IMG/VR virus record: IMGVR_UViG_3300043640_000027
Location: 1 to 63,050 of that record
Origin: a virus
Reading direction: 5' to 3' (one strand)
DNA: 63,050 bases
How positions within the stretch are numbered: the first letter of the stretch is position 1; the number at the start of each line of letters is the position of its first letter. Both the position numbers and the translations under genes were made by a program. Below, one piece after another: positions 3,731-39,065 of the stretch. The notes beneath the pieces are model-generated. The model did not search any database and was not told the DNA's origin. It worked only from the letters and a program-made list of their open reading frames with translations.

Positions 3731-3998
3731 CGGTTTCAGTTCCTTGAATAGTGCCTATGGAATCTAGCTGTCCATAGCACAGCTCTAATTTCGTTCTACG
3801 CTTTTTAGCGACGATGGTAGCTTCTTTAACTGTGTCATTAGTCGGCGTGTCTATAGCGTACTTCTGTAGATACTTTGCCGGAACTGCGATATACTTATAG
3901 ACAGTTACCTTTGTCTCTTTTACCTGTGTCGGCCTCGTCTCTCCGCAACCGCCGAGTACCAAGGCCGCAAGGATTAATAGTCCATAGCGGCGGGACAT
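3720..3998 (-). CDS. o-spanin-like outer-membrane lipoprotein (putative)
   Basis: Start chosen at ATG 3998 (AAGGAG 6 nt upstream). N-terminus MSRRYGLLILAALVLGGC is a signal peptide plus lipobox Cys. Overlaps the 3' end of the upstream TM/coiled-coil gene by 25 nt. Confidence 0.6.
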   Translation of the reverse strand: MSRRYGLLILAALVLGGCGETRPTQVKETKVTVYKYIAVPAKYLQKYAIDTPTNDTVKEATIVAKKRRTKLELCYGQLDSIGTIQGTETDGN

Positions 3999-4354
3999 AT
4001 ATGCTCCTTTAGAACAGCGCACTCAGGCTGCTGCTCAAGTTTATCTTGTTTATCTACGAATACTTTGACCACTTTAGGGCCGGCTTCCTGTAATGCTGTT
4101 AGCTTTTTATTCGCCTCTACTTCCCGTAACTTAGCCGCTGTTTCCTGTTTCTGCGCTTCTACCGTCGCATCATTACAGTCTTTCAACACAGCGTCCTTCT
4201 GCTTATTTGTATCTAGCGCATTGTCTAGTTTGGCCTGCACTATAGCTACATCTTTATGTGCGTAACTATATCCGCCCATAACGCAGCAAAGCGCCAGTAT
4301 CGCTACTAGCGCCAGTTCTGCGATCCATAGGTAGGGTTTAATGCTTTGCAGCAT
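3974..4354 (-). CDS. i-spanin-like type II membrane protein (putative)
   Basis: N-terminal TM helix (LWIAELALVAILALCCV) followed by a charged, coiled-coil-like domain. Immediately upstream of, and overlapping, the lipoprotein gene. Confidence 0.55.
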   Translation of the reverse strand: MLQSIKPYLWIAELALVAILALCCVMGGYSYAHKDVAIVQAKLDNALDTNKQKDAVLKDCNDATVEAQKQETAAKLREVEANKKLTALQEAGPKVVKVFVDKQDKLEQQPECAVLKEHICPAAMDY

Positions 4355-4670: not shown

Positions 4671-4987
4671 GCAACACTCGACGTACTCGGAGGTATCCGC
4701 ATCTGTAAATCTTTGACCTGTAGAGATAGCATTGCTACTTGGGTACGTAACTGGCTAATCTGTTCTATAGCCTGATCCCTAGCAGCCGATGCAGCATCAG
4801 CTCTCGCACGTTCCTGCGCGACCTGATCCTGTAGCATTTTGATTATCTGTAGCTGGGCATCATTACCCGCGCGCTCTACAGAGTCACCTGAAAGATATTT
4901 ACGTAGTAGTAAAAATCCTGCTGCTATGCCTGCTACACCTGTGCCAAGAATGCTTAAGATTCCGGTACTGTCCGGCAAATCAGCCAT
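4667..4987 (-). CDS. membrane protein, holin candidate
   Basis: Start chosen at ATG 4987 (MADLPDSTG...). TM ILSILGTGVAGIAAGFLLL, then a coiled-coil-like tail. Overlaps the endolysin stop by 8 nt. The longer track ORF (to 5113) would overlap the endolysin by 134 nt. Confidence 0.5.
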   Translation of the reverse strand: MADLPDSTGILSILGTGVAGIAAGFLLLRKYLSGDSVERAGNDAQLQIIKMLQDQVAQERARADAASAARDQAIEQISQLRTQVAMLSLQVKDLQMRIPPSTSSVA

Positions 4988-5489
4988 TGGCGTAGTCCTG
5001 TGCAACCGCGTAATTCTTGCGCCATTTGGTCTGTATAGCGTCTTTCTGCGTCTGCGTACCACGAGCGTATGCTCCGGGGCGCCAATTACGTACATAGCAT
5101 TTGAATGCACCATCGCTATCTCCTACTTGCGGAAGAGGGTTTGAGTCTGCGTACAGAATCAATCTAGCAACGACGCATGCGAGTTCGTCATTATTAATGA
5201 CTTCTCTGTAAACGGTTTCCCAGTCCGAGATTACTCCTAACTTATTGCACGCGTCTATTAGTATTGGGCCTACAACCTTATGGTTACGTACTGCTTTAAC
5301 GCCATTAGGTTCTTCCTGCCAAAAGCTATGTGCTGGTCCGCCACCTAGCTGTATTCTATCCATGAACCTAGATTCTTGTAGTCCTGTGGTTAGTAGCTGA
5401 ACCCTCGCACTAGGACTATCGAATTTTGGGGCTAGTATTTCTGTCAGTGTTTTATTAACTACCCAAACACCTTGCTCGATACCATTCAT
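4980..5489 (-). CDS. endolysin candidate, SLT-like lytic transglycosylase fold
   Basis: Start chosen at ATG 5489. Motif LQESRF...GGGPAHSFWQ resembles the E-S...GxxGLMQ signature of SLT domains. Heads the membrane-protein/spanin cluster. Confidence 0.55.
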   Translation of the reverse strand: MNGIEQGVWVVNKTLTEILAPKFDSPSARVQLLTTGLQESRFMDRIQLGGGPAHSFWQEEPNGVKAVRNHKVVGPILIDACNKLGVISDWETVYREVINNDELACVVARLILYADSNPLPQVGDSDGAFKCYVRNWRPGAYARGTQTQKDAIQTKWRKNYAVAQDYANG

Positions 5490-5543: not shown

Positions 5544-7028
5544 TCAAGCCCACAAGACCGGCCCAGCCTTCGCCTTGACCGTGTTATCCCCTAGCGCCCG
5601 CATGCCGCTACCGGCCCCATATCGTGCGTACAGGGCTAGGTACTGTATCGCATCGGCCATATGTGAATACTCATTCTTATCTGCGGTATCTAACACTTTA
5701 CCCTGACTGTTACGTGTTTCCTTCCATACGTAGCCTGCCCCCATCACTTCGCGTGTATGAGTTAGATGCGGACTAATCACGAACCCTTCGTCACGACCTA
5801 GAAAAAAGTCCACGGCTTCTTTGCGCGTACTGAATTTATTAGTCATGGCAGGGTACGTTTTAATACCCCGCATAGTCATCATCTGTATAGCGGTCATCTT
5901 AGTTAAGCCTGACCGCTGACCACCTGCCGGGTCACCGCTAGCCACGATACTATACCCATTATACTTACTTCGTAGTAGTGGTAGTATATATCCATCTAGG
6001 AAATCTTCGAGACTTTCGTCTGTCGCCGGTAACTCATCCAGTAACACCAGTCCTTTGAAATTAAGTTGAGCAATAATACAGGCAGGAGTAAGACCGAAGT
6101 CGATACCAAGAATAATGCTAGTACCGCGTCTCGGCAGTATGATCTCTTTCGATACATGCTTATTCTCTGAGAACTTAGAAAAGATCGGCTTACCCCGCCG
6201 CGTCATCCCATACTCGCCCGCCAGATTAACCCGGATGGCCTCTTCACTCTTAGCCATCTGGCGTATATAGTAGTTGTCAGATAGGTGACTTAAGTTCTCT
6301 GCATCAGGATTAAGCTCCCACCTCTCACCGTTCCAAAACACGGCGGGCGGCTGCTTATACTTCTTCCACCCTTTAGGCGTCTCCCCACCCTCAAACTTTG
6401 TATAGCACCAGTGCGTATTCCTCGGAGGGTTAGAGTCGCATATGATCCCCGGTTCTGTAGCACCGAACGTCCGTACCCCATCCGCATCTTTCTTCGTCTC
6501 TGGGTATCGGTCAATACGCTCTAACAGACCATCGACTATCTCGATCGGTATCTCTCGGGCCTCGTTTATGTACGCACCCGTAAGCTCCAAGGACAATAGC
6601 TTGGATACGTCTTCTGGGGTATCGAGCGCCATGAAGTACACTTCAAGGTGTACGCTTGTCCCATCTGCCATCTTCTGTTTGAACGTACACAGTATGGGCA
6701 TGGAATAGACTACCGGCGCTAGCGCGTTGGGCACCCACTGCTGCCACGTCTTTATAGTTGTCGTTTTTAGCTCTGGATACGTGTTACGCACGAACACCCA
6801 TCGTGAGCGTCTTACATGCTGGTCATCAGGCTGTTGACGCATAGCCCGCATCAGCACTTCCATCATGCACCCAGTAGATTTACCCGACCCTACCGGCCCC
6901 TCGATATACTGTACATCAAGGTTTCGATCATTATGTAGTCGCGTCAGTGTAGGCTCTGCCTTATAGACAAACGCCTGCGCCGCTTTAGCTAACTCTGTTT
7001 TCTTAAACTCTTCGACTGGCACACTCAT
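5544..7028 (-). CDS. terL: terminase large subunit
   Basis: Walker A GPVGSGKST and Walker B-like LTGAYINEA. Nuclease-domain-like motifs ILGIDFG, SGDPAG and HMADAIQY. 494 aa. ATGA-coupled to the upstream small-subunit candidate. Confidence 0.85.
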   Translation of the reverse strand: MSVPVEEFKKTELAKAAQAFVYKAEPTLTRLHNDRNLDVQYIEGPVGSGKSTGCMMEVLMRAMRQQPDDQHVRRSRWVFVRNTYPELKTTTIKTWQQWVPNALAPVVYSMPILCTFKQKMADGTSVHLEVYFMALDTPEDVSKLLSLELTGAYINEAREIPIEIVDGLLERIDRYPETKKDADGVRTFGATEPGIICDSNPPRNTHWCYTKFEGGETPKGWKKYKQPPAVFWNGERWELNPDAENLSHLSDNYYIRQMAKSEEAIRVNLAGEYGMTRRGKPIFSKFSENKHVSKEIILPRRGTSIILGIDFGLTPACIIAQLNFKGLVLLDELPATDESLEDFLDGYILPLLRSKYNGYSIVASGDPAGGQRSGLTKMTAIQMMTMRGIKTYPAMTNKFSTRKEAVDFFLGRDEGFVISPHLTHTREVMGAGYVWKETRNSQGKVLDTADKNEYSHMADAIQYLALYARYGAGSGMRALGDNTVKAKAGPVLWA

Positions 7029-7690
7029 ACGTCATCCTGCTCTGGTACGCGCACGGGGGCAATCACTGGATAGTCTGAGTGGGTCTTCTGTAGATAGTCT
7101 GGCGCACGCTCAAGCACAAATGGATTAGTCTGGTCTAAACTAAAGGTCACTGGCATGTCCTGTACGTTCGCATTAAGCGCCTTCGGATCAGGAGCGGGAT
7201 TATTCGCATTCACCTGCACCGCCGCATTATCCCCTACGATAAACGTATAAGACACGGCGGCTTGTTGTCCAAGTTCTGCGGCACTCTGCCCGTAAGTTTT
7301 CTTATCCTTCTTGCTCGCCATCCAACGCCCATGCTCGATCATAGCCTTAGCCTTGTCCAGATCGAACTTGGTAATAGCGGCTTTCAGCATTACCTCGCCA
7401 TTGCGTATGTAGCCTTCTGCGCTTAGTACGCTGGCCTCTTCCACTTCCCCTTGGTAGCCATTCTCATCTATCCAAGTACGCAACGTGGTGACCGGCAAGT
7501 TAAGTTCGTCCGCCAAGTCGATAATCGTTGCGCCACGGTATAGGAATTCTTTGATCGGTACTAGACCTATCTCCATCAGAAAGGCGTATGGATTGCCTAC
7601 ACCACGGAAGCGTATATTGCGCGCTCTTAAGGCTATCGAGTCCCTGAATGTACTCGGGGTCGGCGGTGGTTGGGTAGCTATAGCTGGCAT
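7025..7690 (-). CDS. terS: terminase small subunit (putative)
   Basis: ATGA-coupled upstream of TerL. HTH-like segment IIDLADELNLPVTTLRTWI. Start uncertain: ATG 7690 chosen, the track start 7762 is a TTG. Confidence 0.55.
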   Translation of the reverse strand: MPAIATQPPPTPSTFRDSIALRARNIRFRGVGNPYAFLMEIGLVPIKEFLYRGATIIDLADELNLPVTTLRTWIDENGYQGEVEEASVLSAEGYIRNGEVMLKAAITKFDLDKAKAMIEHGRWMASKKDKKTYGQSAAELGQQAAVSYTFIVGDNAAVQVNANNPAPDPKALNANVQDMPVTFSLDQTNPFVLERAPDYLQKTHSDYPVIAPVRVPEQDDV

Positions 7691-8004
7691 AGGCACAGTA
7701 TAAAATTCTACAAGGTGTGGGCGATGTACGCGTAGTATGCGGGGTTTGTTGGGCCAGTGCAAGAGTTATAGGGCTGATCGTCGGAGCCGAGAAAAATTTT
7801 TGGGGGAGTAAGATTATATGGGTGATAAATCTCCGCAGTATCCTCGACACATAATTTCTAAAAAGGGTTCAGATATGAGTGTCGGATGGTGGTTTGGCGA
7901 TCCGGCGTGGGGTGCGGTCGGCCCGTGGTCCGCATGGGGGTGGGTCTAGCCCGATTAATCATATGCGCAGCGGGCCTATTAACTAAGCGATTATCTCGAC
8001 CGAG

Positions 8005-8032
8005 TAGACAGGGTTAATAAGGGTGGTATAAT
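8005..8032 (+). promoter_or_regulatory. sigma70-like promoter with extended -10
   Basis: TAGACA (8005-8010), 16-nt spacer, TGgTATAAT (8024-8032). Lies in the non-coding hub, facing ORF 8165..8416 and the plus-strand arm. Confidence 0.5.
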
Positions 8033-8164
8033 TAAATCAGGGAAAGGGCGGGGTATGGTTTGGCCCGCTCCCGATAGGGTATTAGTTATGTGATTAATAC
8101 CCCGCAGTAAAGTCTGCCCCGCAGTTAATCGGGGCTAATCAATTAAACAACTAGGACAAATCTA

Positions 8165-8416
8165 ATGGATCGCATTAATAATGAAGTGTTGTATGGTCTG
8201 GCTCGCCGTATGTCTGGTGTAATGGGCTGCGCAATTGAGCTTGAACGTGGTAGTAAGTTTAATGGCATCGCTTGGAAGTTTGTTTCCCGTAATGGTTCGC
8301 GTACTGAGATAACCGGACAATCGGCCCGTGAGTTATATGAGAAAGCGCACTCGTTTACGTCTGGCTGGTTCGCGCACGAAGATAAGATGGAAGCCGACAA
8401 GCTAAACAAAGGCTAG
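8165..8416 (+). CDS. hypothetical protein (first plus-strand ORF)
   Basis: 83-aa ORF with balanced, charged composition. Weak RBS (AGGAC). Preferred over the Ser-rich antisense ORF 8143..8409. Confidence 0.45.
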   Translation: MDRINNEVLYGLARRMSGVMGCAIELERGSKFNGIAWKFVSRNGSRTEITGQSARELYEKAHSFTSGWFAHEDKMEADKLNKG

Positions 8417-8423
8417 ACACAAG

Positions 8424-9123
8424 CAAGAAACGCGGAAACGCTAAGCGGGGTTATATAGGTAATGGCATATCTAATAATCCCGTGTTTCTTTAATGGAATA
8501 TAGCCGCATAAAAAAGGGTGTTCAAAAATGGGGCTGTGTTTATGTCGATACGGTTTTGTGATTAAGCTAGCTATATACGGCTCTTTTGTATCTTCTGTGT
8601 CTGTGGATAGAAACAAAATGGGTCGGCCATGGGTTAATAAGATCAACAACTTATGACCTACACCGGCCAGTACAGCATGTGCATAACTCCGATGAAACAG
8701 GTGAGATACACCAACGGCTATCCCATTTTCTACGGTTTGTGTTTCTGTTTCTTTTCTAAAAACAGAGGTTCATAGGCAACCCTTGTTTTGGCCACCACAA
8801 CTCACTCGCCTATGAGATTCAGCCCTGTTTCTTTGGTACACCAGACAGCTACAAGAAACGTTCCAGTGGTGTACCAAACACCCTGTATTTTTATACTGCT
8901 ATGTTTGGAAAGCTACAGCGAAACACGAGAGGCTAACCCATTGATTAAACTAAACTCTTTTTGTTTCTTGCACCTTAACGAAACATTAAGAAACTAAGTA
9001 GAATTCCATACTAAACGCGTTTCTTTCGTTTCTCCCTTGTGCAACTGGTACACCACCACGAAACGCTCCATGCCAGCCGTCACCACTGGTACACCTCAAC
9101 GAAACAAGCTACCGCCTAGAAAC
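8424..9123. repeat. iteron array: 18 GAAAC/GTTTC cores, including 8 copies of the 7-mer AAGAAAC/GTTTCTT, plus 4 copies of TGGTACACC
   Basis: GAAAC at 8427, 8435, 8610, 8694, 8855, 8920, 8980, 8990, 9060, 9101, 9119. GTTTC at 8484, 8741, 8747, 8827, 8963, 9019, 9028. TGGTACACC at 8834, 9046, 9087 and inverted at 8868. An AT-rich stretch at 8461-8620 is adjacent. Confidence 0.8.
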
Positions 9124-9150
9124 ACTAGCAGAATCAGTCACATACACCGC

Positions 9151-9179
9151 TTGCCGACCCTAGCCCGATAAGCTACACT
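9151..9179 (+). promoter_or_regulatory. sigma70-like promoter for the early operon (putative)
   Basis: TTGCCG (9151-9156), 17 nt, TACACT (9174-9179), about 50 nt upstream of ATG 9228. The -10 context CTACACTAG recurs at 13706. Confidence 0.4.
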
Positions 9180-9227
9180 AGAACGCGAGCGCACCCGTTC
9201 CACTAACCCACGAAAAGGACACTAGTC

Positions 9228-9560
9228 ATGGCGAAGATCACGAAAGCCAATACCTCACCGCTGGCCCTGTACCGTATTAAAGACTTGCCGCGTGGTGAAT
9301 ACATCCGCCGCGTTGACTTGTGTCCCGACTGTAGAGGGTCAGGCAAGTTTGCTATCTACACCAAAACCGCACACGGCCCAGATTGCGAGTTTTGTAAGGG
9401 AAGCGGTTACGTCAAGGAGTATCCAACGGTATGGGTCAAAGGCGACTACATGCGGTCATGCCTTGTTGCGGGGAAGTATGAGTTAATCCGCTTTGACGAC
9501 ATAAGCCGTTGCATATACAAGCCGGGCAATACGCTGGTGCTGGCAGGCTTCACGTTTTAG
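9228..9560 (+). CDS. DnaJ-type zinc-finger protein (two CxxCxGxG motifs)
   Basis: CPDCRGSG and CEFCKGSG motifs. First gene after the hub; RBS AAAGGA. Confidence 0.6.
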   Translation: MAKITKANTSPLALYRIKDLPRGEYIRRVDLCPDCRGSGKFAIYTKTAHGPDCEFCKGSGYVKEYPTVWVKGDYMRSCLVAGKYELIRFDDISRCIYKPGNTLVLAGFTF

Positions 9561-9662
9561 ATAAGTGGCGATAGGCAAGCCCAGACTAATCAGTAATACC
9601 GCAACACTGGCAATTCAATCGCACTAGGGCGAGTCCTAGTAATACAATCGGAGTCTAATCAA

Positions 9663-11075
9663 ATGGCTGTTATCTCTTTCCCGTTTAAGTCCGCACTGGC
9701 ACTGCGCATTGCCAACCTGATTACTAATGACATTGAGAAGCTGGAACGTGAAGCGTTCGGCACCGTGACTAACTGGCAATCTAAGTATGAGCGCCCATTC
9801 AAAGCACACTATGCCAATGATTTGGTTGCACGCGCCTTGAATATCGACCGTGCCGCGTTCGCGTTAGCGAATGGTATTGGCAAGTATGAAAAGCGCGCCG
9901 AAGCCTACGCGAATAACCCCAACAAAAAGGGTAGGCCATTAACTAGCTTTATCAACGTGGACGATCCGACCGCAGATAATGCCGTAGAGGAACAGATGGA
10001 GTCGGAAGATAACGGACTGGCCGATGAAATCGCCGCGATCCTTTCCGATAATATCCCCGTGCCACAAAGCCGCCAGTCATCCCCGCGTGCGAGTGCTACC
10101 GCAGCACAACCGCAGAACCTACCAAAGCAGCCCACTACGCAAGCCGCGCCCGTTAAGCTACCCGATGGTATTCCCGCCGATGCGCAGAACGCACTGGCCG
10201 CGTTAATGGCGGCGCTTACGCCACAAGCCGCACCGATAGATGAAACCATGATTCGCGAGATTGCACGCGACGAAGCCAAGAAAACAATCAGCCCGACCAT
10301 CGTCATAGTTAATCATGTAGACCCAGACGGCGAGATAACCGTGGTAGATATGGGCGTGCAACATAAAGCGTTTCCGATGTTACTTAAACTGTGCCAGTTG
10401 AAAGACCACGCCGGTTATGCGTTTCCGATATGGTTACCCGGCCCCGCTGGCAGTGGCAAGACGACAGCCGCAATGAACGTTGCAAAGGCGCTTGATATTT
10501 CGTTTCATCATACCGGCGCGGTAGATACCGACTATAAACTAACCGGATATCAGGACGGCGGTGGCTTGTACCATTCTACAGAGTTTCGTGCGGCATACGA
10601 AAATGGCGGGGTGTTTCTGTTTGACGAAGTGGACGCGAGTAATCCTAATGCAATGGTGGCGCTTAATGCCGCGATTGAGAATGGGCGCTGTGCGTTTCCC
10701 GATGCCACCATTGCACGGCACAAGGACTGTGTAGTTATTGCCGCAGCTAATACGTATGGTGGGGGTGCCACGCATGAATATGTCGGACGTAATAAACTGG
10801 ACGCGGCGACAGTTGACAGGTTTATTATGCTGGACTGGCCGTATGATGAAATACTTGAGCGCGCCATCGCGGGAGATAATGAATGGACGACGTATGTCCA
10901 GAGTATCCGGCGAGCGGTTAATAGCGCGGGGATTAAGCATGTAGTCTCGCCGCGTGCCAGTATCAGGGGTAACGCCATGCTAGCCGCAGGGTTTGACAGG
11001 CCGACAGTTATTAAGGCGACAGTACAGAAAGGACTGAGCGCGGAACAGTGGGCTAGCGTGAGCATGAGGGCTTAA
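9663..11075 (+). CDS. AAA+ ATPase, MoxR/CobS-like (AAA_5-type)
   Basis: Walker A LPGPAGSGKTT, Walker B VFLFDEVD, and sensor/Arg-finger region AAANTYGGG...GRNKLDAATVDRF. Pro/Gln-rich low-complexity N-terminal half. Confidence 0.75.
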   Translation: MAVISFPFKSALALRIANLITNDIEKLEREAFGTVTNWQSKYERPFKAHYANDLVARALNIDRAAFALANGIGKYEKRAEAYANNPNKKGRPLTSFINVDDPTADNAVEEQMESEDNGLADEIAAILSDNIPVPQSRQSSPRASATAAQPQNLPKQPTTQAAPVKLPDGIPADAQNALAALMAALTPQAAPIDETMIREIARDEAKKTISPTIVIVNHVDPDGEITVVDMGVQHKAFPMLLKLCQLKDHAGYAFPIWLPGPAGSGKTTAAMNVAKALDISFHHTGAVDTDYKLTGYQDGGGLYHSTEFRAAYENGGVFLFDEVDASNPNAMVALNAAIENGRCAFPDATIARHKDCVVIAAANTYGGGATHEYVGRNKLDAATVDRFIMLDWPYDEILERAIAGDNEWTTYVQSIRRAVNSAGIKHVVSPRASIRGNAMLAAGFDRPTVIKATVQKGLSAEQWASVSMRA

Positions 11076-12412: not shown

Positions 12413-13686
12413 GCCTGACAACTACAATGGGAATCGAACTGACCTATATACCGCTGGCGATTCAGACGGCCATAGACCGTGGCGCGGTGATTAATCCGCA
12501 GCAAAGTTTACCGGGCGAAGAGCATCTGTGTAGCGCATTCGCCCGACTAATGGCGAAGCTGGTAGAGGCGAAGAAAATCCCGACCTACAAAGGCGTGCAT
12601 ACCGATCCGGGTTGCGTGGAGGTGCAGACCCGGCCATATAGGAAACTCACCACGCTGATTAATATAGCGCGCAGGCTGCGCCGTGAGGCCGAAGCATTAG
12701 GCATGGTTACCGAAGCGGCATATACGAATGGTGGCGGCGCGCATATTCATACCGGCATTATCGGTGACAGTGAACAAGAGCGGAATATGTACGCCAAGCG
12801 TATGATGTTGTTTGCCGCTATGAACCCATGGCTATGCTGGGCGACACTTAATGTTAACGACGACATTAACGCCATGCCGATTTGCGAACACCACTTGAAA
12901 AACTGCTACGGCGAGAGCGAAGGAGCATCAGAAGAAACCTATAGCGAACGCGTGACGTACTGCGTTAATGAGCTTGTCAACGAAGAGACCGCACTACACG
13001 CAAGAGGTGCGTGGATGAGCGCGTATACCCGTGAGCGGAATATGCGCGACGTGCGATACGCCCAGCGCGAAGTAATGGGTTTTCGCAAACAGCTATTCTA
13101 TTATCGCCGCGCCAATAGCAAGCAAAGTAATGGCGTAGTAAGCCGTAACGTGAAAGATATTCAGTACATCGGTAACAAAGATCACATGGTAAGGCTCACC
13201 ACCTACGGCAAGTTCGGCACCGCAGAGTTTCGTTGTTTTGAAATGGGCGGCGAAGATAAACTAAAGAGTAATATCATTCTAGCTAATGCGATATGCAAAT
13301 ATGTAGAGCGCTGGGACGTTACACAGTACGACAGCACACAAGTTATGTCCGGCAGTGCCATGCGAAAGATTAAATGGAGTGAGGCGCGCAAAGGTTGGCT
13401 TGATATGCTCACCATGCTAGGACTGGACGCCGCAGACTACCGCAACGAAACGGCACAGATAGCCGCACGCTGGCGCTATGCACGCAGCGAGGGCGAGAAC
13501 CCGACCGCCGCAGAGGTGCCCGCAGCACAGGCGCTGCACGAGCGCAGGGAAGACACTACAGCAAGGGACGCAGCACGCGCCCAACGCCGCTGGATGCGCA
13601 GGCTGACCCGTAGCGGAAGGCATCCGATGTGCCGCGCCGTCGCTCCTACCGCCCCGGTCGACGACATAGCGTCATTGGCCGCTTGA
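12409..13686 (+). CDS. glutamine-synthetase-like amidoligase family protein (putative)
   Basis: GIELTY near the N-terminus, GGGAHIHTG, and GTAEFRCFE. This pattern matches my recollection of the Amidoligase_2 (COOH-NH2 ligase) family. Arg-rich C-terminal tail. Confidence 0.55.
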   Translation: MSLTTTMGIELTYIPLAIQTAIDRGAVINPQQSLPGEEHLCSAFARLMAKLVEAKKIPTYKGVHTDPGCVEVQTRPYRKLTTLINIARRLRREAEALGMVTEAAYTNGGGAHIHTGIIGDSEQERNMYAKRMMLFAAMNPWLCWATLNVNDDINAMPICEHHLKNCYGESEGASEETYSERVTYCVNELVNEETALHARGAWMSAYTRERNMRDVRYAQREVMGFRKQLFYYRRANSKQSNGVVSRNVKDIQYIGNKDHMVRLTTYGKFGTAEFRCFEMGGEDKLKSNIILANAICKYVERWDVTQYDSTQVMSGSAMRKIKWSEARKGWLDMLTMLGLDAADYRNETAQIAARWRYARSEGENPTAAEVPAAQALHERREDTTARDAARAQRRWMRRLTRSGRHPMCRAVAPTAPVDDIASLAA

Positions 13687-13712
13687 CAGGCGTTTGTAGA
13701 ATGTTCTACACT
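13675..13712 (+). promoter_or_regulatory. promoter region (two overlapping sigma70-like candidates)
   Basis: TTGACA (13683-13688), 18 nt, TACACT (13707-13712). Alternatively TTGGCC (13675), 16 nt, TAGAAT (13697-13702). The -35 contains the TGA stop of the amidoligase gene. An 8-bp hairpin at 13712-13738 follows. Confidence 0.4.
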
Positions 13713-20463: not shown

Positions 20464-20559
20464 ATGTAGGTGGCGAAATGGTAGACGCGGCGCAAGCTGC
20501 CCTTATATAGAGCGGCCGATCTTGAGGGCGTACAGGTTCGATTCCTGTCCTACATCCCA
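20464..20559 (+). tRNA. tRNA-like element with aberrant anticodon region (type-II/Leu-like D arm; possible pseudo-tRNA or processing signal)
   Basis: 7-bp acceptor ATGTAGG/CCTACAT. Leu-like D arm GCGAAATGGTAGACGC. Canonical T arm ACAGG-TTCGATT-CCTGT, discriminator C and encoded CCA. The 43 nt between the D and T arms (20489-20531) does not fold into a 5-bp/7-nt anticodon arm; it forms a long hairpin at 20498-20530 instead. Confidence 0.45.
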
Positions 20560-20572
20560 TTCGGAGATAATC

Positions 20573-20818
20573 ATGTTCGGTATTATGCACCATCTAAAGG
20601 TGACCATCTGCGAGAACGCAATGGACGCCATCGCTAAGGGCTATTCCAAAGAAGCAACCTACAAAGACTATAAGCCTGTCAACATAGAGGAAGTAGTCGT
20701 GGTGCGTGACGGTACAGAAGGCGGAAACTCTACCGCCGATCTTGTTCTTGTAGACCAAGAAGGCAATAAATACGTCGTCATGGTCACAGGTAATTTACTT
20801 AAGGCTTTGCCGGTATAG
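20573..20818 (+). CDS. hypothetical protein
   Basis: Start chosen at ATG 20573 (GGAGA 5 nt upstream, 14 nt after the tRNA-like CCA). The stop TAG lies 10 nt inside tRNA-Thr. Confidence 0.55.
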   Translation: MFGIMHHLKVTICENAMDAIAKGYSKEATYKDYKPVNIEEVVVVRDGTEGGNSTADLVLVDQEGNKYVVMVTGNLLKALPV

Positions 20819-20884
20819 CTCAGTTGGTAGAGCAATTCACTTGTAATGAATAGGTCGTGAGTTCGATTCTTACTATCGGCACCA
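20809..20884 (+). tRNA. tRNA-Thr(UGU): tRNA-Thr (anticodon UGU)
   Basis: Manual cloverleaf: GCCGGTA TA GCTC AGTTGGTA GAGC A ATTCA CTTGTAA TGAAT AGGTC GTGAG TTCGATT CTTAC TATCGGC A CCA (76 nt). Confidence 0.9.
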
Positions 20885-20897
20885 CTAAGGATTAAAT

Positions 20898-21140
20898 ATG
20901 GAACGCTGGGACGATACTGTACCGCCGTTAATGTTGTTTACCCCCGAAGAGTTCGCCCGTGTACCAGATGGTACAAAGTTAGAGGCTATTGACGGAGAGA
21001 TAGTAACCAAAGGCGAAGATCACATAGACGACGATGTTAGATTCGGTTGTCTAGCTTTCGGAAGTAGGGACGAAGAAGTGCAAAAGTTAGCGAGTGTGGC
21101 GGAATTGGTAGACGCGCTAGATTTAGGTTCTAGTAGTTAA
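20898..21140 (+). CDS. hypothetical protein whose last 16-17 codons and stop lie inside tRNA-Leu
   Basis: AAGGA 7 nt before ATG 20898, 14 nt after the tRNA-Thr CCA. The ORF runs 51 nt into tRNA-Leu(UAG). Confidence 0.5.
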   Translation: MERWDDTVPPLMLFTPEEFARVPDGTKLEAIDGEIVTKGEDHIDDDVRFGCLAFGSRDEEVQKLASVAELVDALDLGSSS

Positions 21141-21174
21141 CACTGTGCGGGTTCAATTCCCGCCATTCGCACCA
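21090..21174 (+). tRNA. tRNA-Leu(UAG): tRNA-Leu (anticodon UAG)
   Basis: Manual fold: GCGAGTG TG GCG GAATTGGTAGA CGC G CTAGA TTTAGGT TCTAG, 13-nt variable arm, GCGGG TTCAATT CCCGC CATTCGC A CCA (85 nt). Confidence 0.9.
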
Positions 21175-21191
21175 AATACAGAGGCATCATA

Positions 21192-21491
21192 ATGGAAATC
21201 AAAGTAGCGCCGGAAGATATTAATACCATGCTGGCGGACGCGGTACTCAAATCCGCCATAGGTAAAGAACTACATCAGGTCATTCTGTCTAAGCTTAATG
21301 ATTATACGTTCAAGCGCGCCATCGAGGAGACGGTTATTTCAGTTGTAAGGAATATCGCGATAGACATGGTTCATGAGAACGAAGAAGTCAAAACTAGAAT
21401 CAAGGAAGAAGTGGCTAAGTACATGGAAGGCGGCGCAATGAAAGATATTATCGCTAAGATAGGCGATAAAATAACTGTGGCTAACTACTAA
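21192..21491 (+). CDS. hypothetical protein
   Basis: 99-aa ORF. AGAGG RBS; the start lies 18 nt after the tRNA-Leu CCA and the stop 5 nt before the next tRNA. Confidence 0.6.
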   Translation: MEIKVAPEDINTMLADAVLKSAIGKELHQVILSKLNDYTFKRAIEETVISVVRNIAIDMVHENEEVKTRIKEEVAKYMEGGAMKDIIAKIGDKITVANY

Positions 21492-21496
21492 ACTAT

Positions 21497-21573
21497 AGGC
21501 GGTTAGCTCAGTTGGTCAGAGCAGGCGACTCATAATCGCTTGGTCGTGGGTTCAAGTCCCACACCGCCTACCA
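21497..21573 (+). tRNA. tRNA-Ile2/Met(CAU): tRNA with anticodon CAU (probably lysidine-type tRNA-Ile2; elongator Met not excluded)
   Basis: AGGCGGT TA GCTC AGTTGGTCA GAGC A GGCGA CTCATAA TCGCT TGGTC GTGGG TTCAAGT CCCAC ACCGCCT A CCA (77 nt). The A1-U72 pair and the anticodon arm match my recollection of E. coli ileX. Confidence 0.85.
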
Positions 21574-21600
21574 TAAATGCAACATAACCAAGGCACGGAT

Positions 21601-21885
21601 ATGTCTAAGGCAGTAGCAGTAACTCAGATGGTTCTGCACAACGCGAATATACCGCGAGTGCTTTGCGACCACATGCTAGGCGAACACCATACAACGCGAC
21701 ACCGCATGCTTGTGGGTACAGTAGTTATGCTTTGCGGGGTATTAATCGCAAAGACCACAGGGCATATTCACTCCGAAGTAGTCGAAGTGATGGGCGATCT
21801 GACAGGTTATCTTGTGCATGGCGTAGGAGCCGTACCTTACGTGGATGCGTTAGTTATAGCGGTACGGCGTAGCAGCGGAGATTAG
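21601..21885 (+). CDS. small membrane protein
   Basis: Start chosen at ATG 21601 (AAGG upstream). Two hydrophobic helices (MLVGTVVMLCGVLIA and LVHGVGAVPYVDALVIAV). The track start 21577 lies 4 nt after the tRNA. Confidence 0.5.
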   Translation: MSKAVAVTQMVLHNANIPRVLCDHMLGEHHTTRHRMLVGTVVMLCGVLIAKTTGHIHSEVVEVMGDLTGYLVHGVGAVPYVDALVIAVRRSSGD

Positions 21886-21886
21886 A

Positions 21887-22057
21887 ATGGCTAAGTCCAT
21901 GAAGGGTGCAGGCTTCAAAGCTGTGCAAAGTAATATCGCTAAGAAAGAAGGTATCCCGATGAAGAGCGCGGGCGCTATCTTGGCGAAGTCCAGCCGCAAT
22001 GCCAGCGCCAAAGCGAAGAAAGCTAACCCAGCACTCAAGAAAGTTAAGGGTTACTGA
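21887..22057 (+). CDS. small Lys-rich basic protein (56 aa, below track cutoff)
   Basis: Manual translation MAKSMKGAGFKAVQSNIAKKEGIPMKSAGAILAKSSRNASAKAKKANPALKKVKGY. Fills the gap and its stop overlaps the next ATG (TGATG). Preferred over antisense ORF 21850..22038. Confidence 0.5.
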   Translation: MAKSMKGAGFKAVQSNIAKKEGIPMKSAGAILAKSSRNASAKAKKANPALKKVKGY

Positions 22058-22497
22058 TGGCTAAGGTCAAGTGGTTAGAGAGGGAGCTATTCCGCTCCCC
22101 CGTGTATTATTGTCTCTGCACTACCGAAAAAGAATACACAGAAGAGTTTGTTCGATTAGACGTTAAGTATCCGGGTGAGTGGTTGAAGAATGACCGATCC
22201 GGCGCTTGCACGCATTTCGCCACACATAAGGACTATGGTACAGTCGCTATCGTCTGTATGCCAATAGAGCCTAAGCGTACATTAGTAGAACTTAATGCGA
22301 TGCTTGTGCATGAAGGGACGCATGTTGTCCAAGAGGTAATGGACAACATAGGTGAGAAGCACCCTAGTGGAGAGTTTCAAGCGTACCTAATGCAGAAAGT
22401 ATGTTTGGAACTAATGGGGGAGATGATGCGCAAGCTATACACTAAACCCAAACTGCTAGCTAAGATTATGGCTAACCAAGCGAAGATATATAAATGA
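22057..22497 (+). CDS. hypothetical protein with HExxH motif (possible small zinc metallopeptidase)
   Basis: MLVHEGTHVVQEV contains HEGTH. 146 aa. Confidence 0.5.
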   Translation: MAKVKWLERELFRSPVYYCLCTTEKEYTEEFVRLDVKYPGEWLKNDRSGACTHFATHKDYGTVAIVCMPIEPKRTLVELNAMLVHEGTHVVQEVMDNIGEKHPSGEFQAYLMQKVCLELMGEMMRKLYTKPKLLAKIMANQAKIYK

Positions 22498-23063
22498 GCG
22501 AATTAATTACCACTACAGCGAATAGAGTCAAAGCTGGTGGTTACTGGTGCGAGGATGCCACAGCGATTACGCAGGCAGCCTTAGATAAGACTGGACTAAG
22601 TTGGGACGATGAAATTCCCGTTACTTGGGGGTTCAATAACCTAGGGCTGGCAAATACTATTCTGGCCCTAGGTTCTGTTCGTCCGAAGTTTCAGAAGCGA
22701 GCAGATGTAATTACTATTAAGTTACTGAAAGAACTACATAGCATAGCTTTGAAGCTATGCGAGAAAGTAGGATTTACGGTAACTGATGTGGGGCATTGGC
22801 TGGGTAACCCGGATCGTGTAGGTAGCCGGAAGACGCAGTATAGTATGTGGCAACAGCTAGGACAGTCTGCCAGTATGCCGGTCGATAAAGCCCTGATAGA
22901 AGCCATGGCAGTCCTATTTAGCGAACAGCCAGACCACCTTAAGTGCGTCCATGCAAGTAAGCAGATACTATTTGTAGCGCGAGCCTTGAGCGGTGATGCA
23001 GGAGCCGTACAACTACGGTACGAGATAATCAACTTTCTACACACGGAGCTAGACAATGGATAA
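22494..23063 (+). CDS. hypothetical protein
   Basis: 189-aa ORF, ATGA-coupled. Confidence 0.65.
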   Translation: MSELITTTANRVKAGGYWCEDATAITQAALDKTGLSWDDEIPVTWGFNNLGLANTILALGSVRPKFQKRADVITIKLLKELHSIALKLCEKVGFTVTDVGHWLGNPDRVGSRKTQYSMWQQLGQSASMPVDKALIEAMAVLFSEQPDHLKCVHASKQILFVARALSGDAGAVQLRYEIINFLHTELDNG

Positions 23064-23463
23064 GATCGAAACGCGGTACTGGAAGCGCGCGCGCCATGAC
23101 TTAGACAGGGACACGAGAGAAGTTATTTACTTCGCTACCGATACAAACGCAGCGCATGCCCGCGCAGAGAGCGACCCACACGCACAGGAATGCGGCTTCC
23201 GCGAGTACAGCGACAACGTACCGGAGCAGGTACACAACGGCGCAGATCGCAGCCCAGCCCCCGTGGAACTGGTAGACCCGCTAGTAGGTAAACAGCAGGC
23301 ATGGGAAGCGTTGCAGGCATGGACTCATTCGCACGGTGACAGCGTAGCGATTCAAGACCAGATCGCCATGCTTGAGCTTTGGAAGCACCAGTTATGCATG
23401 TGGGCAACAAGCACCATGGCTGCGCAGCTTAAGCCCGATGGAGCTAAACCTAATGTCAACTGA
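23056..23463 (+). CDS. hypothetical protein
   Basis: 135-aa ORF overlapping its neighbours by 8 and 11 nt. Confidence 0.6.
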   Translation: MDKIETRYWKRARHDLDRDTREVIYFATDTNAAHARAESDPHAQECGFREYSDNVPEQVHNGADRSPAPVELVDPLVGKQQAWEALQAWTHSHGDSVAIQDQIAMLELWKHQLCMWATSTMAAQLKPDGAKPNVN

Positions 23464-23989
23464 TCTAATGATCGACATTGAAACACTCGGCACAGCAAAT
23501 AATGCCCATGTGTTGTCGGTCGGCATGGTGTGGTTCGATATTAGGCATCCCGATGAATCGCTAGTAGAACTTCCGATCTTACACCCCGATATGGCGCAGC
23601 CGCTTAGTATGATCGACGGCGACACGGTAGCGTGGTGGATGAAGCAAGGTACGGAAGCCAAGCAAGTATTTGCGGACACAGTAGAGCGCGAAGCTCTTTC
23701 CGTGGTCGCCGAAAAAGTATATCAGAATGCCAATAACGCCCAACGTATATGGGCAAAAGACCCGGACTTCGATTGCATTATTCTGGCTAACTTCGTTCAG
23801 AACTATCTGAGCAAGAGTATTAAATGGCCGTACTGGAAAGGCCGCAGCGTCCGCACCATGTTGGATGTACTGCCAGCCACCAAGGAAATGCGGTTTGAGG
23901 GCGTCCAACATAATGCTTTGGCCGACGCGGTTCATCAAGCCAAGCAGATGCAGGCGGTGTTTAGTCACCTACAATTGAGGAACTACTAA
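23453..23989 (+). CDS. DEDDh-type 3'-5' exonuclease
   Basis: Start chosen at ATG 23453 (MSTDLMIDIETLG). ExoI motif DIETLG and ExoIII motif HNALADAVH. Confidence 0.7.
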   Translation: MSTDLMIDIETLGTANNAHVLSVGMVWFDIRHPDESLVELPILHPDMAQPLSMIDGDTVAWWMKQGTEAKQVFADTVEREALSVVAEKVYQNANNAQRIWAKDPDFDCIILANFVQNYLSKSIKWPYWKGRSVRTMLDVLPATKEMRFEGVQHNALADAVHQAKQMQAVFSHLQLRNY

Positions 23990-24156
23990 TGACTGTATGC
24001 AGAGAGTGCGACGGCGTAGGTGAGATTATGTGCGACGAGTGTGGTGGTTCGGGTCTAGGCGATAGCGACAAAGGCACTTGTGAAGTATGCGACGGCAACG
24101 GCGTATTGATGTGCCAGGACTGCGGCGGTATGGGCGAATTAGAAGACGAAGATTAA
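23989..24156 (+). CDS. DnaJ-type zinc-finger mini-protein (55 aa, below track cutoff)
   Basis: Manual translation MTVCRECDGVGEIMCDECGGSGLGDSDKGTCEVCDGNGVLMCQDCGGMGELEDED gives four CxxCxGxG repeats. TAATG coupling. Ends 7 nt before tRNA-Leu(UAA). Confidence 0.6.
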   Translation: MTVCRECDGVGEIMCDECGGSGLGDSDKGTCEVCDGNGVLMCQDCGGMGELEDED

Positions 24157-24163
24157 TAGTATT

Positions 24164-24247
24164 GCGCGGGTGGTGGAACGGTATACACATGAGACTTAAA
24201 ATCTCACGGCGAAAGCCTTGCGGGTTCGAGTCCCGCTCCGCGCACCA
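24164..24247 (+). tRNA. tRNA-Leu(UAA): tRNA-Leu (anticodon UAA)
   Basis: GCGCGGG TG GTG GAACGGTATA CAC A TGAGA CTTAAAA TCTCA, 13-nt variable arm, GCGGG TTCGAGT CCCGC TCCGCGC A CCA (84 nt). Confidence 0.9.
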
Positions 24248-34321: not shown

Positions 34322-34584
34322 TGGCTGAAATCTCAATACCCCTACTAGATGCGATACATCGGGACATAGACGCGAAAGCAGAGCGTGCGGCTAATACTTT
34401 GCTTGTCAGCTTCACCCACGTACTGCACTATGAACTACGTAAACTAGGTGTTTCAGGAGACGACGCGAAGGACGAATGCAACGCACTAAGCGCTAAGTAT
34501 CTACCTAGCGTGCTACAGAGACAGAAGAACTACATGTTTAACCAGTGCGTCGCCAATATAACCCGCACCGAACAAGAATTCTAA
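34321..34584 (+). CDS. hypothetical protein
   Basis: 87-aa ORF with TAATG coupling. Confidence 0.6.
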   Translation: MAEISIPLLDAIHRDIDAKAERAANTLLVSFTHVLHYELRKLGVSGDDAKDECNALSAKYLPSVLQRQKNYMFNQCVANITRTEQEF

Positions 34585-34598
34585 CGGAGATAATTTCA

Positions 34599-35720
34599 AT
34601 GTCAAATGATCTACTCATTCAAGGTAACGGCCCAATGAACCTGCCAGCCCATTTGGCTGGTACGAACTTCGGCGTTACTACAAACCTGATGGAAGGCATG
34701 TTTACGGCAGGCAACCGTATCGGCCTGAAAGGTTCACGCTTTCGACTTGTGGTAGGTGGTATCGAAGAGTGCGTGATCCAAGAACCGTACCTAGACGTTA
34801 TCTTCCTAGGTGCAGCCCCAGCAGTGAGTCGCGTGTACTATGAAGGCGCATACAAGCAGGGTGAGAACGCTGCACCTACCTGTTACAGTGCCGATGGTAT
34901 CGTGCCTAACGACGACGTGAAAGCAAAGCAAGCCGATAAGTGCATGACCTGCCCGCAGAATGCCAAGGGCAGCAAGATCGTAGACGGCCAGCAGTTCAAG
35001 GCTTGTGCCTACTTCCGCCGTGTCGTGGTTATGCTGGCGGGTGACATAGATCAGCAAACCGTGTTCAAGCTTGACGTGAAGGCTCAGGGCTTGTTCGGCG
35101 AAAGCACCGCGAATGAAAAGAACCTTAACGAATACATCAAGATGATCGCAACTCGTGGCGTCGATGCTGGTGCAGTAGTTACCCGCATTAGTTTTGACAC
35201 CGATGCCAGTGTGCCGAAGCTTCTGTTTAAGGCTGTGCGGTTTATCTCGGTGGAAGAGATGGGTGTCGTGTCTAACTTGGTGCAGAGTGAAGAAGTAATT
35301 AATCTCAAGACTGTTTCCATGTCTACGCTTGACTCGTCGCATGAAGAGCCGACAGGCGGCGATGAACCCGCAGCAGAGCAGGAAGCGCCCCCAGCGCAGA
35401 CCCAGCGGCCAGCGGCCACGCAGCGGCCCCAGCAAGCGGCCCAGACGGCGAAGCCTGCAACGCAAGCGGCCCCAGCAGCTGCCCAGCGGCCAGCCGCGAC
35501 CCAGCGTCCCGTACAGGCGGCGGCAACCACGCAGCGAGCGGCCCCGGCCACGCAGCGGCCCGCGACAACTACCCAGCGTCCGGCAACACAGACCGCTAAA
35601 CCCGTTGTAGAAAGCAGCGTACCGGCACCACAGCGTACAGCAACTAAGGCGCCGGAACCCGTAGTGACCGAAGTAGGAACCGATGACGAACTGGCTGACC
35701 TGCTAGCGAGCCTTGAGTAA
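34599..35720 (+). CDS. single-stranded DNA-binding protein-like (putative; Cys4 cluster, disordered Q/P/A/T linker, acidic C-terminal tip)
   Basis: Start chosen at ATG 34599 (GGAGA upstream). Cys cluster C-x22-CxxC-x18-C. About 110-aa ATQRP-type repeat linker. C-terminus DDELADLLASLE. Architecture is analogous to SSB/gp32/gp2.5-type proteins. Confidence 0.45.
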   Translation: MSNDLLIQGNGPMNLPAHLAGTNFGVTTNLMEGMFTAGNRIGLKGSRFRLVVGGIEECVIQEPYLDVIFLGAAPAVSRVYYEGAYKQGENAAPTCYSADGIVPNDDVKAKQADKCMTCPQNAKGSKIVDGQQFKACAYFRRVVVMLAGDIDQQTVFKLDVKAQGLFGESTANEKNLNEYIKMIATRGVDAGAVVTRISFDTDASVPKLLFKAVRFISVEEMGVVSNLVQSEEVINLKTVSMSTLDSSHEEPTGGDEPAAEQEAPPAQTQRPAATQRPQQAAQTAKPATQAAPAAAQRPAATQRPVQAAATTQRAAPATQRPATTTQRPATQTAKPVVESSVPAPQRTATKAPEPVVTEVGTDDELADLLASLE

Positions 35721-38902: not shown

Positions 38903-39030
38903 GGCGCGCTGTACGGCGCTTCGTCGGCCACCGATGCCCAGCCGGGAACGCAGAATGCCCCTGTCGCGGGCATCGGAATCGACCAGACTATCGAATACGT
39001 CTTGCGGCAGGTATCAGTTTACCTGCATTT

Positions 39031-39063
39031 AGGCCCGGTACATTACGTACCGGGCCTCTTTTT
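39031..39063 (+). terminator. intrinsic terminator hairpin at the convergence point of both arms
   Basis: AGGCCCGGTAC / GTACCGGGCCT 11-bp stem with a 5-nt loop, followed by CTTTTTG. Lies 3-9 nt beyond the minus-strand stop (39066) and about 130 nt beyond the plus-strand stop (38902). Confidence 0.7.
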
Positions 39064-39065
39064 GT

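Follow-up and report, generated by a model that had tools for sequence, protein, structure and literature searches.

Replication initiators of the type of Rep from staphylococcal pathogenicity islands (SaPI) and of Cch load themselves onto DNA. Their C-terminal winged-helix domains recognise penta- or hexanucleotide iterons, which occur in 6-12 copies, in opposite orientations, on either side of an AT-rich centre (PMC9371898, PMC7581432). An array of GAAAC/GTTTC pentanucleotides is found in the phage genome IMGVR_UViG_3300043640_000027, a metagenomic contig of 63,050 nt that was analysed at its full length and is called the window below. The array lies in the hub (7691-9227) between the ATG of the small terminase gene terS (7690) and the first early gene (9228), the sole divergent junction of the genome. 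To our knowledge, replication origins are unknown for nearly all uncultured phages. The best explanation of the array, judging from the sequence, is that it consists of binding sites for one sequence-specific DNA-binding protein encoded by the phage. Tentatively, we read it as an iteron origin for a helicase of the SaPI-Rep/Cch type, which probably doubles as an operator of the early promoter.

The likeness to the origins of SaPI and of the staphylococcal cassette chromosome (SCCmec) Cch lies in the many repeats of 5-6 nt in both orientations around AT-rich DNA, and in an initiator of the DUF927/Cch helicase type. In SaPI, however, the 6-12 iterons are situated directly downstream of rep, whereas the window has 18 sites distributed over 700 bp and located 27 kb away. 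Many of the window sites have a second half-site, CAC-N6, and promoters, an integration host factor (IHF) site and DnaA-box-like sites are interleaved with them. The carrier is a lytic-type 63-kb phage rather than a satellite or a cassette.

In phage P4, the fused primase-helicase alpha binds short repeats (TGTTCACC) in both orientations with its C-terminal winged-helix domain. The repeats of P4 ori and crr are not adjacent to the 3' end of the alpha gene, and two site clusters, several kb apart, are needed. The window is similar in having a fused primase-helicase and repeats in both orientations away from the 3' end of its gene. However, the primase is of another type, the motif is different, and there is a single cluster.

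Theta origins of iteron plasmids (pSC101, P1 oriR, F, R6K) rely on DnaA boxes and an AT-rich stretch together with sites for IHF and for the initiator. Their iterons are 17-22 bp long, and inverted initiator sites at the promoter provide autoregulation. Candidates for the same elements are present in the window, and the 24-25 bp period of the sites in one of its relatives, L309, resembles that of the 17-22 bp iterons. On the other hand, the spacing in the window is irregular, the evidence for DnaA boxes is weak, and no initiator of the RepA type was found in the phage.

Finally, the cosB region of phage lambda (R3-I1-R2-R1), bound by the small terminase gpNu1, contains three R sequences, each with CGTTTCC; R2 is inverted, and the IHF site lies between R3 and R2 (PMC4669245). 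The GTTTC-containing core, the inverted sites around an IHF site and the position upstream of terS are analogous in the window. However, cosB has three sites within ~120 bp beside cosN and Nu1, whereas the numerous sites of the window are dispersed, with genes and a promoter between them and terS, and the window TerS is not a homologue of Nu1. The pac site of phage P1, with its hexamer repeats, was grouped with lambda cosB as a comparison system.

The GAAAC array and its conservation

The array and its modules are as follows.

8418..9123, both strands: array of GAAAC(A/G) sites with 18 cores, 11 on the plus and 7 on the minus strand, including five CAC-N6-GAAAC composites and four doublets
8418..8488: module M1, with CAC-N6-GAAAC-N3-GAAAC opposed to an inverted GTTTC beyond an AT-rich spacer
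8970..9042: dyad module M3 (73 bp), GCAC-N6-GAAAC-N5-GAAAC-N24-GTTTC-N4-GTTTC-N6-GTGC, with the promoter-like GTAGAATTCCATACT in its centre (8998-9012)
9051..9123, plus strand: two direct composites TGGTACACC-N5-GAAAC (9046-9064 and 9087-9105), followed by one lone site at 9119, shortly before the candidate early-operon promoter P_E

The counts on which an earlier note had singled out this region are reproduced. The segment 8427-9123 contains 18 GAAAC/GTTTC cores, compared to 1.30 expected per 731 bp from the remainder of the genome (Poisson P=5e-15), and no other 5-mer of the hub is as enriched as GAAAC. The 7-mer AAGAAAC/GTTTCTT has eight copies (8425, 8484, 8747, 8827, 8853, 8963, 8988, 9019), where 0.09 are expected, and the 9-mer CAAGAAACG is found in the genome only twice, at 8424 and 8852. 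The genome-wide check of motif enrichment that the earlier note had called for confines the GAAAC array to one locus.

The 5-mer and the 7-mer had also been taken as the repeated unit. Neither is the whole unit, which comprises CAC-N6-GAAAC, doublets and the dyad. In 72 sites from five phages, the base following GAAAC (position +5) is A in 54 cases, G in 17, T in one and never C. CAC is situated exactly 6 nt upstream of GAAAC in 21 of these sites, with ~0.8 expected by chance; the composite spans one helical turn. All five composites of the genome are within 8418-9104 of the hub. The doublets have the form GAAAC-N1-5-GAAAC, and neither composites nor intergenic doublets were found in the genome outside the hub. 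Two other doublets, at 4140 and 30537, were treated as chance: the former is inside the minus-strand open reading frame (ORF) 3974-4354, and the latter in an apparent small ORF starting from ATG 30494, as judged by eye. Spacings between the cores of the window are irregular, from 6 to 126 bp. Two more modules are recurrent and conserved, namely the convergent sites 8920 (+) and 8963 (-) with an IHF consensus between them, and the pair of direct composites at 9051 and 9092.

The sole other k-mer cluster of the genome, AGCGGCC x8 (35404-35560; P ~3e-15), was considered as a rival origin and judged to be probably a coding by-product. It is GC-rich, has all copies on one strand, and encodes the low-complexity linker of TQRPA repeats in a 391-aa ORF (34545-35720). 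This ORF has an acidic C-terminal tail and is located just upstream of the end of the helicase operon; AGCGGCC is read in two frames.

Relatives of the window were recovered from IMG/VR, Logan and JGI assemblies and are denoted by L numbers. Their TerS proteins are identical to that of the window at 95% (L064), 85% (L065), 75% (L007), 72% (L003), 59% (L004), 56% (L008) and 55% (L309); the L309 helicase is 49% identical to the window one. A comparison with relatives had been proposed as a check, and a cluster of 9-21 GAAAC cores is indeed present at the same place in all seven phages. In a four-phage alignment, 13 of the 18 cores are invariant, whereas among background 5-mers this holds for 21 of 548 (3.8%; Fisher P=8e-14), and column invariance is 86% inside the cores and 32% outside. 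Judging by this substitution pattern, the array is functional DNA with selection acting on the cores and not on the flanks.

The modules are conserved too. The M1 arrangement is kept in L064, L065, L007 and L003, with a spacer varying in length (44 nt in the window vs 10 nt in L007). M3 is kept in L064, L065 and L007, and is degenerate in L008. In L309, six composite sites follow each other in tandem with a period of 24-25 bp and adjoin an AT-rich stretch, a classic iteron layout. Fixed short islands, drifting flanks and variable spacers argue for protein-binding sites rather than a coding region or a structured RNA.

The hub had been described as non-coding, and this agrees with the comparison. 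The sole sizeable ORF (8165-8416) is not conserved in the relatives, which have other accessory genes there. Hidden coding sequence in 8420-9227 was rejected, as tblastn produced short matches mirroring DNA conservation and alignment gaps break any frame.

Another possibility is action at the RNA level, by a structured leader or a non-coding RNA read through from the upstream promoter P_B, or else that the array is mere bent DNA caused by phased A/T tracts. The region is downstream of the strong P_B with no clear terminator before it, the complementary GAAAC and GTTTC could pair, and there is a perfect 12-bp inverted repeat (8832-8843 / 8867-8878). However, this repeat is retained in the closest relative only. 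Neither known RNA families nor tRNAs were found in the hub, Rfam having no match even at E up to 5. The spacers between paired cores are not complementary and, as in M1, differ in length among relatives, and the cores are invariant and show no covariation. Curvature does not explain the fixed G...C frame and the CAC-N6 partner. Thus both variants are highly improbable. The dyads were also rejected as hairpins or cruciforms, because only the cores are complementary, and not the spacers (e.g. ATTAA vs GAAA in M3).

At larger distances the motif changes. The phages L310-L312, whose helicases are 44-48% identical to that of the window, have the same gene order and a gene-free gap of 650-1065 bp upstream of the ATPase gene, filled with other repeats: CGACAC x8 in L312, GCGATAC x7 plus a 28-bp inverted repeat in L310. 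More distant phages sharing the ATPase have arrays of CCAGC or GCCCCCC units. At the position corresponding to the hub, gene-free repeat stretches lacking GAAAC were located in L310 (4756-5656), L312 (4632-5697), L029 (4578-4972) and L049 (4350-4730); apparent k-mer clusters in the distant ATPase-sharing contigs L013 and L014 are coding and were discarded. Turnover of the motif within a stable architecture points to a co-evolving binder encoded by the phage.

The candidate initiator and a possible origin

The most likely candidate for the binder is the C-terminal domain of the primase-helicase of the phage itself.

36011..38902, plus strand: primase-polymerase/DUF927 helicase of 963 aa, the last gene of the rightward arm

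This protein matches the Pfam family DUF927 (4e-28) and the NCBIfam profile Cch1 (1e-15), and, among PDB sequences, SCCmec Cch (5dgk, 4e-10) and SaPIbov1 Rep (8tch, 2e-8). The AlphaFold2 (AF2) model of its last 274 residues (encoded by 38078-38899) has a pLDDT of 80. Foldseek comparison of the model yields 8tch (E 3e-5) and 5dgk (2e-4) as the top matches, followed by weak (E>0.1) matches to winged-helix DNA-binding proteins. Thus the modelled C-terminal part matches the fold of SaPIbov1 Rep and Cch, with a predicted wing-like end at residues ~875-950. Homologues of the helicase number 694, many of them on contigs of 60-66 kb. In the C-terminal region of the helicase, certain residues of the stretches WLR(R/K/Q)xL and QxRLT set the GAAAC-bearing phages apart from those with other motifs, a distinction that is confounded by phylogeny. 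Another binder proposed in the earlier note, the 93-aa helix-turn-helix (HTH) protein encoded at 35720, was abandoned, as nothing links it to the array.

Interspersed with the sites are further elements that resemble those of iteron origins.

8585..8614, plus strand: TTTGTATCTTCT-N-TGTGGATAGAAAC, which is the longest invariant block and belongs to the AT-rich tract 8461-8620
8602-8610: DnaA-box-like TGTGGATAG within this block
8678..8686, minus strand: second DnaA-box-like site, TTATGCACA, which is a perfect TTATCCACA in L007 and L065
8934..8946, minus strand: IHF consensus WATCAANNNNTTR between the convergent sites 8920 (+) and 8963 (-)

The AT-rich tract 8461-8620, noted before, is real but modest, with 36% GC compared to ~50% in the genome. 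A second tract, 8872-9030, has 35% GC, and the lowest-GC 300-bp segment of the genome is 8725-9025, which is no dramatic outlier. Groups of opposed sites are located around AT-rich spacers in M1 and M3; the array has several modules of this kind and lacks one obvious centre. The sequence TTGTATCTT from the longest invariant block recurs in the AT-rich part of the L309 hub. The two DnaA-box-like sites match the consensus at 8 of 9 positions, have one orientation and are separated by 76 bp. L064, L065 and L007 retain them, and L003 has one. By chance, 1.9 matches to the IHF consensus would be expected in the 62.9 kb, but the genome has this one alone; L064 carries it exactly, and L065, L007 and L003 with one mismatch.

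A possible mechanism is as follows. The helicase would recognise GAAAC(A/G) cores as single sites, doublets or bipartite CAC-N6-GAAAC, and assemble on the oppositely oriented groups of sites. It would then melt the adjoining AT-rich stretch, 8461-8620 and/or 8872-9030, perhaps aided by the host proteins IHF (at 8934-8946) and DnaA (at 8602 and 8678), and load itself as the replicative helicase, similar to SaPI Rep. The forks would then be co-directional with both transcription arms. A second, regulatory role of the array is likely, because promoters are interleaved with the sites: those proximal to the early arm (the dyad 8970-9042 and the sites in 9051-9123) flank the dyad centre and P_E, both of which are promoter-like. 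The same protein could also feed back on early transcription, because the helicase gene is the last gene of that operon; initiators of iteron plasmids act on their own promoters in this way.

The origin suggested in the earlier note is the leading reading, given the single locus, its conservation, the self-loading helicase and the tandem sites of L309; binding, melting, initiation and regulation themselves are inferred. A number of observations weigh against it. The array is 27 kb from the helicase gene, unlike the SaPI origins, and the segment directly downstream of that gene (38903-39065) contains neither iterons nor GAAAC, but only terminator-like hairpins. With its 700 bp and irregular spacing, the array is wider than the known origins of the SaPI/Cch type. 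The majority orientation of composites in L004 and L309 is inverted relative to the window. The AT-rich tracts, at 35-36% GC, are not unique in the genome. The DnaA-box-like sites, one mismatch from the consensus, occur at chance frequency (14 vs 13.5 expected genome-wide) and are absent from the hubs of L004 and L008. A GC-skew minimum, which the earlier note had proposed to look for, does exist, but it coincides with the switch of the gene strand and, being confounded with gene orientation, is not independent evidence. The presence of the motif follows the drop of TerS identity (from 55% to 36-37%) more sharply than that of helicase identity (from 49% to 44-48%), and the C-terminal region of the helicase is 43% identical to that of the window both in the GAAAC-less L312 and in the GAAAC-bearing L309. 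This comparison of co-variation with the helicase and with TerS is ambiguous, because phylogeny confounds both signals. Finally, promoter-like elements are bracketed by the sites, and a model with operators alone accounts for this just as well.

A broader proposition is that one initiator and one 700-bp array serve as the origin and the operator of the whole early operon in a large family of uncultured phages of ~60-66 kb, in which the motif was swapped several times (GAAAC with CAC, CGACAC, GCGATAC) and the architecture remained stable. In its full extent we consider this unlikely. If true, it would extend self-loading initiation of the SaPI type from small satellites to full-size lytic phages and would provide a natural series of specificity changes in the DNA-binding domain of an initiator. 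Confirmation of the origin would mean that pentanucleotide iterons and self-loading Rep helicases are used by large phages, not by satellites alone, that an origin can be fused with the control region of an early promoter, and that motif turnover in the family is material for studying the evolution of initiator specificity. Sequence alone yields a pair that can be tested in experiment. One member is the site grammar, with GAAAC(A/G), the 73-bp dyad and CAC-N6-GAAAC; the other is the candidate binder, the helicase C-terminal domain. The phage family carrying this pair is abundant in metagenomes. Even if the array is a TerS site or a pure operator, this grammar is the first cis-regulatory map for the family.

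Promoters, packaging and the rival functions of the array

The hub contains at least three promoters of the sigma-70 type, and the following features bear on the alternatives to replication.

7025..7690, minus strand: small terminase gene terS, the first gene of the leftward structural arm, with an HTH around 'IIDLADELNLPVTTLRTWI'
7697..7711, minus strand: promoter-like element GTAGAATTTTATACT of 15 bp with a TATACT -10 box, adjoining the start of terS on its upstream side
8005..8032, plus strand: sigma-70 promoter P_B, TAGACA-16-TG-n-TATAAT, directed rightward and conserved in six relatives
9151..9179, plus strand: early-operon promoter P_E, TTGCCG-17-TACACT

Both promoters flanking the array had been predicted in the earlier note. 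P_B is strong indeed, with 11 of 12 consensus matches plus an upstream TG in a promoter scan, and is conserved in relatives. P_E is weak compared to the consensus but conserved in four phages. One more intergenic promoter, TTGACA-18-TACACT at 13683-13712, has the -10 region CTACACTAG in common with P_E (9174), and its spacer contains GTAGAAT.

A rival reading is purely transcriptional control, in which a phage or host factor would use the GAAAC sites as operators or for activation, with no role in replication. Acting at the genome's sole divergent promoter hub, such a factor would time the rightward early operon and perhaps also the early-to-late switch. The array is always just upstream of the rightward early arm or in its leader, whatever genes are inserted around, and its sites overlap or flank promoter elements: M3 is arranged around 8998-9012, and others are 30-125 bp upstream of P_E. 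M3 brackets a promoter-like 15-mer that otherwise occurs only directly upstream of TerS, and its arrangement, with 24 bp between two pairs of sites, is reminiscent of repressor operators. The weak hexamers of P_E, with sites at about -66, -84 and -125, are similar to those of activator-dependent promoters. The phage has no RNA polymerase of its own and therefore must steer the host enzyme. No such gene was found in the genome, the 2436-aa protein having only the LPD38 domain, and promoters of a phage RNA polymerase were rejected for this reason.

However, 18 sites over 700 bp, with six or more in tandem in L309, far exceed known phage operators. The motif is absent from all other intergenic regions, including the promoter at 13683-13712 that has the -10 region of P_E. 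No regulator gene is linked to the array: the adjacent gene encoding a 110-aa protein, which has a homologue in L007, is absent or moved in relatives keeping the array, being upstream of it in L008. Moreover, the strongest promoter already has a separate cluster of TTAAT motifs. Thus control of transcription as the sole function is doubtful, in distinction from the regulatory role that the array may have in addition to being an origin.

The 15-mer itself deserves a separate description. The sequence GTAGAATTnnATACT is present exactly twice in the genome, before the terS start (7697-7711, minus strand) and in the centre of M3 (8998-9012, plus strand). GTWGAATNNNNTACT has only these two exact genome matches, and 7697-7711 forms an inverted repeat with 8998-9012. 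In alignment A1 the block 7697-7711 hardly varies. Both copies are changed to GTTGAAT in L007. Judging by its sequence, the 15-mer resembles a promoter element common to the two places and directed outward on either side.

One more alternative is a packaging array similar to pac or cosB. In this case the HTH of TerS would bind GAAAC, IHF would bend the DNA, TerL would cut nearby, and packaging would proceed leftward through terS and terL. TerS does carry an HTH, the array is upstream of terS in the clade of the window, and the motif is present in phages with a TerS identity of at least 55% and absent from those with 36-37%. There is also a lambda-like pattern GAAAC-IHF-GTTTC at 8920-8967, with inverted sites around the IHF site, which is a resemblance of sequence pattern only. 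Two unrelated arrays have terminase neighbours: that of L066 is upstream of a Terminase_3 operon, and that of L072 is directly upstream of a TerS-like ORF with a weak Terminase_2 match.

On the other hand, the array is 730-1430 bp from terS, with accessory genes and the strong outward promoter P_B between them, and the distance is 0.9-2.1 kb in L004 and L309. The array follows the early arm and not terS; the element tightly linked to terS throughout the family is another one, Block A (see below). The known pac and cosB regions are smaller, at most 300 bp with 3-7 sites. The window TerS is outside the Nu1 family: no terminase family model matches it, and there is only a weak HTH match. Its ATG at 7690 fits the starts of homologues (MSAIATQ), which are 55-95% identical in the relatives. 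It has no homology to the terminase-side ORFs beside the GAAAC arrays of L066 and L072, and two other GAAAC arrays are in replication genes far from any terminase. A packaging function is thus quite unlikely.

These unrelated phages with dense GAAAC arrays were found by a search of IMG/VR with the dyad pattern. The L072 array (8677-8823) is directly downstream of a VapE-type helicase gene, and the L071 array (6265-6365) is just upstream of a DnaB-type helicase gene. In the L070 group, which includes ~10 similar contigs resembling Collinsella prophages, the array (4819-4920 in L070) is inside a DUF6291 gene (a weak Pfam match, below the curated cut-off) beside the SSB gene. The L066 array occupies 9434-9805. 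Together with the R sequences of lambda cosB, these arrays mean that the GAAAC motif is used in replication and packaging contexts alike. In bacterial genomes, at least 120 heterogeneous matches to the dyad pattern were found, many of them multi-copy palindromes, and these are uninformative.

Other elements of the hub and the genome

Five features complete the hub and its right border.

7865..7945: Block A, a cis element with the core CCGTGGTCCGCATGGGGGT at 7923-7941, ~230 bp upstream of terS
7940..8190: TTAAT/ATTAA motifs clustered around P_B, in 11 copies compared to 1.2 expected
8039..8140, plus strand: conserved leader of ~100 nt after P_B, with GCAGTAAAGTCTGCCCCG invariant at 8104-8121 (alignment A3)
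8165..8416, plus strand: slot of accessory genes, here an 83-aa ORF that is lineage-specific and has no homologue in the relatives
9228..9560, plus strand: first early gene, encoding a 110-aa protein with two CxxC pairs

The core of Block A, (C)CGTGGTCCGCATGGGGG(T), is ~200-250 bp upstream of terS and invariant in A1. Block A is kept throughout the family, including the GAAAC-less L310-L312, and also in the distant contigs L061 (4673-4701) and L062 (9083-9111); other positions are 2467 in L309, 4061 in L310 and 3554 in L312. A small ORF in this block (MSVGWWFG...GPWSAWG) is not favoured because of a stop codon in the L310 frame. Block A may be a late promoter, a leader or a packaging signal.

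The TTAAT/ATTAA cluster is a second, separate class of motifs and may be a set of operators for a different regulator. In L008, the matching region 4700-5300 contains 17 copies. The leader after P_B was considered as a structured RNA; it folds with a modest z-score of -2.6, shows little covariation and matches nothing in Rfam. In L064 the accessory slot is occupied by a PF23790 (Kyano_Gp96) gene, in L065 by three small genes, and in L007 by an ORF with a RadC-like HPSG motif, recognised by eye.

The window has an exact direct repeat of 127 nt at both ends (1-127 and 62924-63050). This overlap indicates that the contig is a circular assembly and that the true genome is ~62,923 bp (~62.9 kb) long. 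No close relative at the DNA level was found among the phage records searched. The nearest cultured phages, Pseudomonas phage Rollin and Rhizobium RHph phages, are very distant, and synteny comparison with Rollin revealed no comparable hub in that phage.

The leftward genes extend from ~7.7 kb, wrapping round to 39 kb, and include those for TerS, TerL, an SU10-type portal, tail proteins and the 2436-aa LPD38 protein. The rightward genes occupy 9.2 to 38.9 kb. This arm encodes an AAA ATPase, a DUF7192 protein, tRNAs, ThyX, a family-A DNA polymerase, a ligase, an SNF2 helicase and a PD-(D/E)XK nuclease, in addition to the primase-polymerase/DUF927 helicase. The tRNA genes are five in number (Ala, Thr, Leu, Met, Leu) and are scattered between small early genes at 20464-24247.

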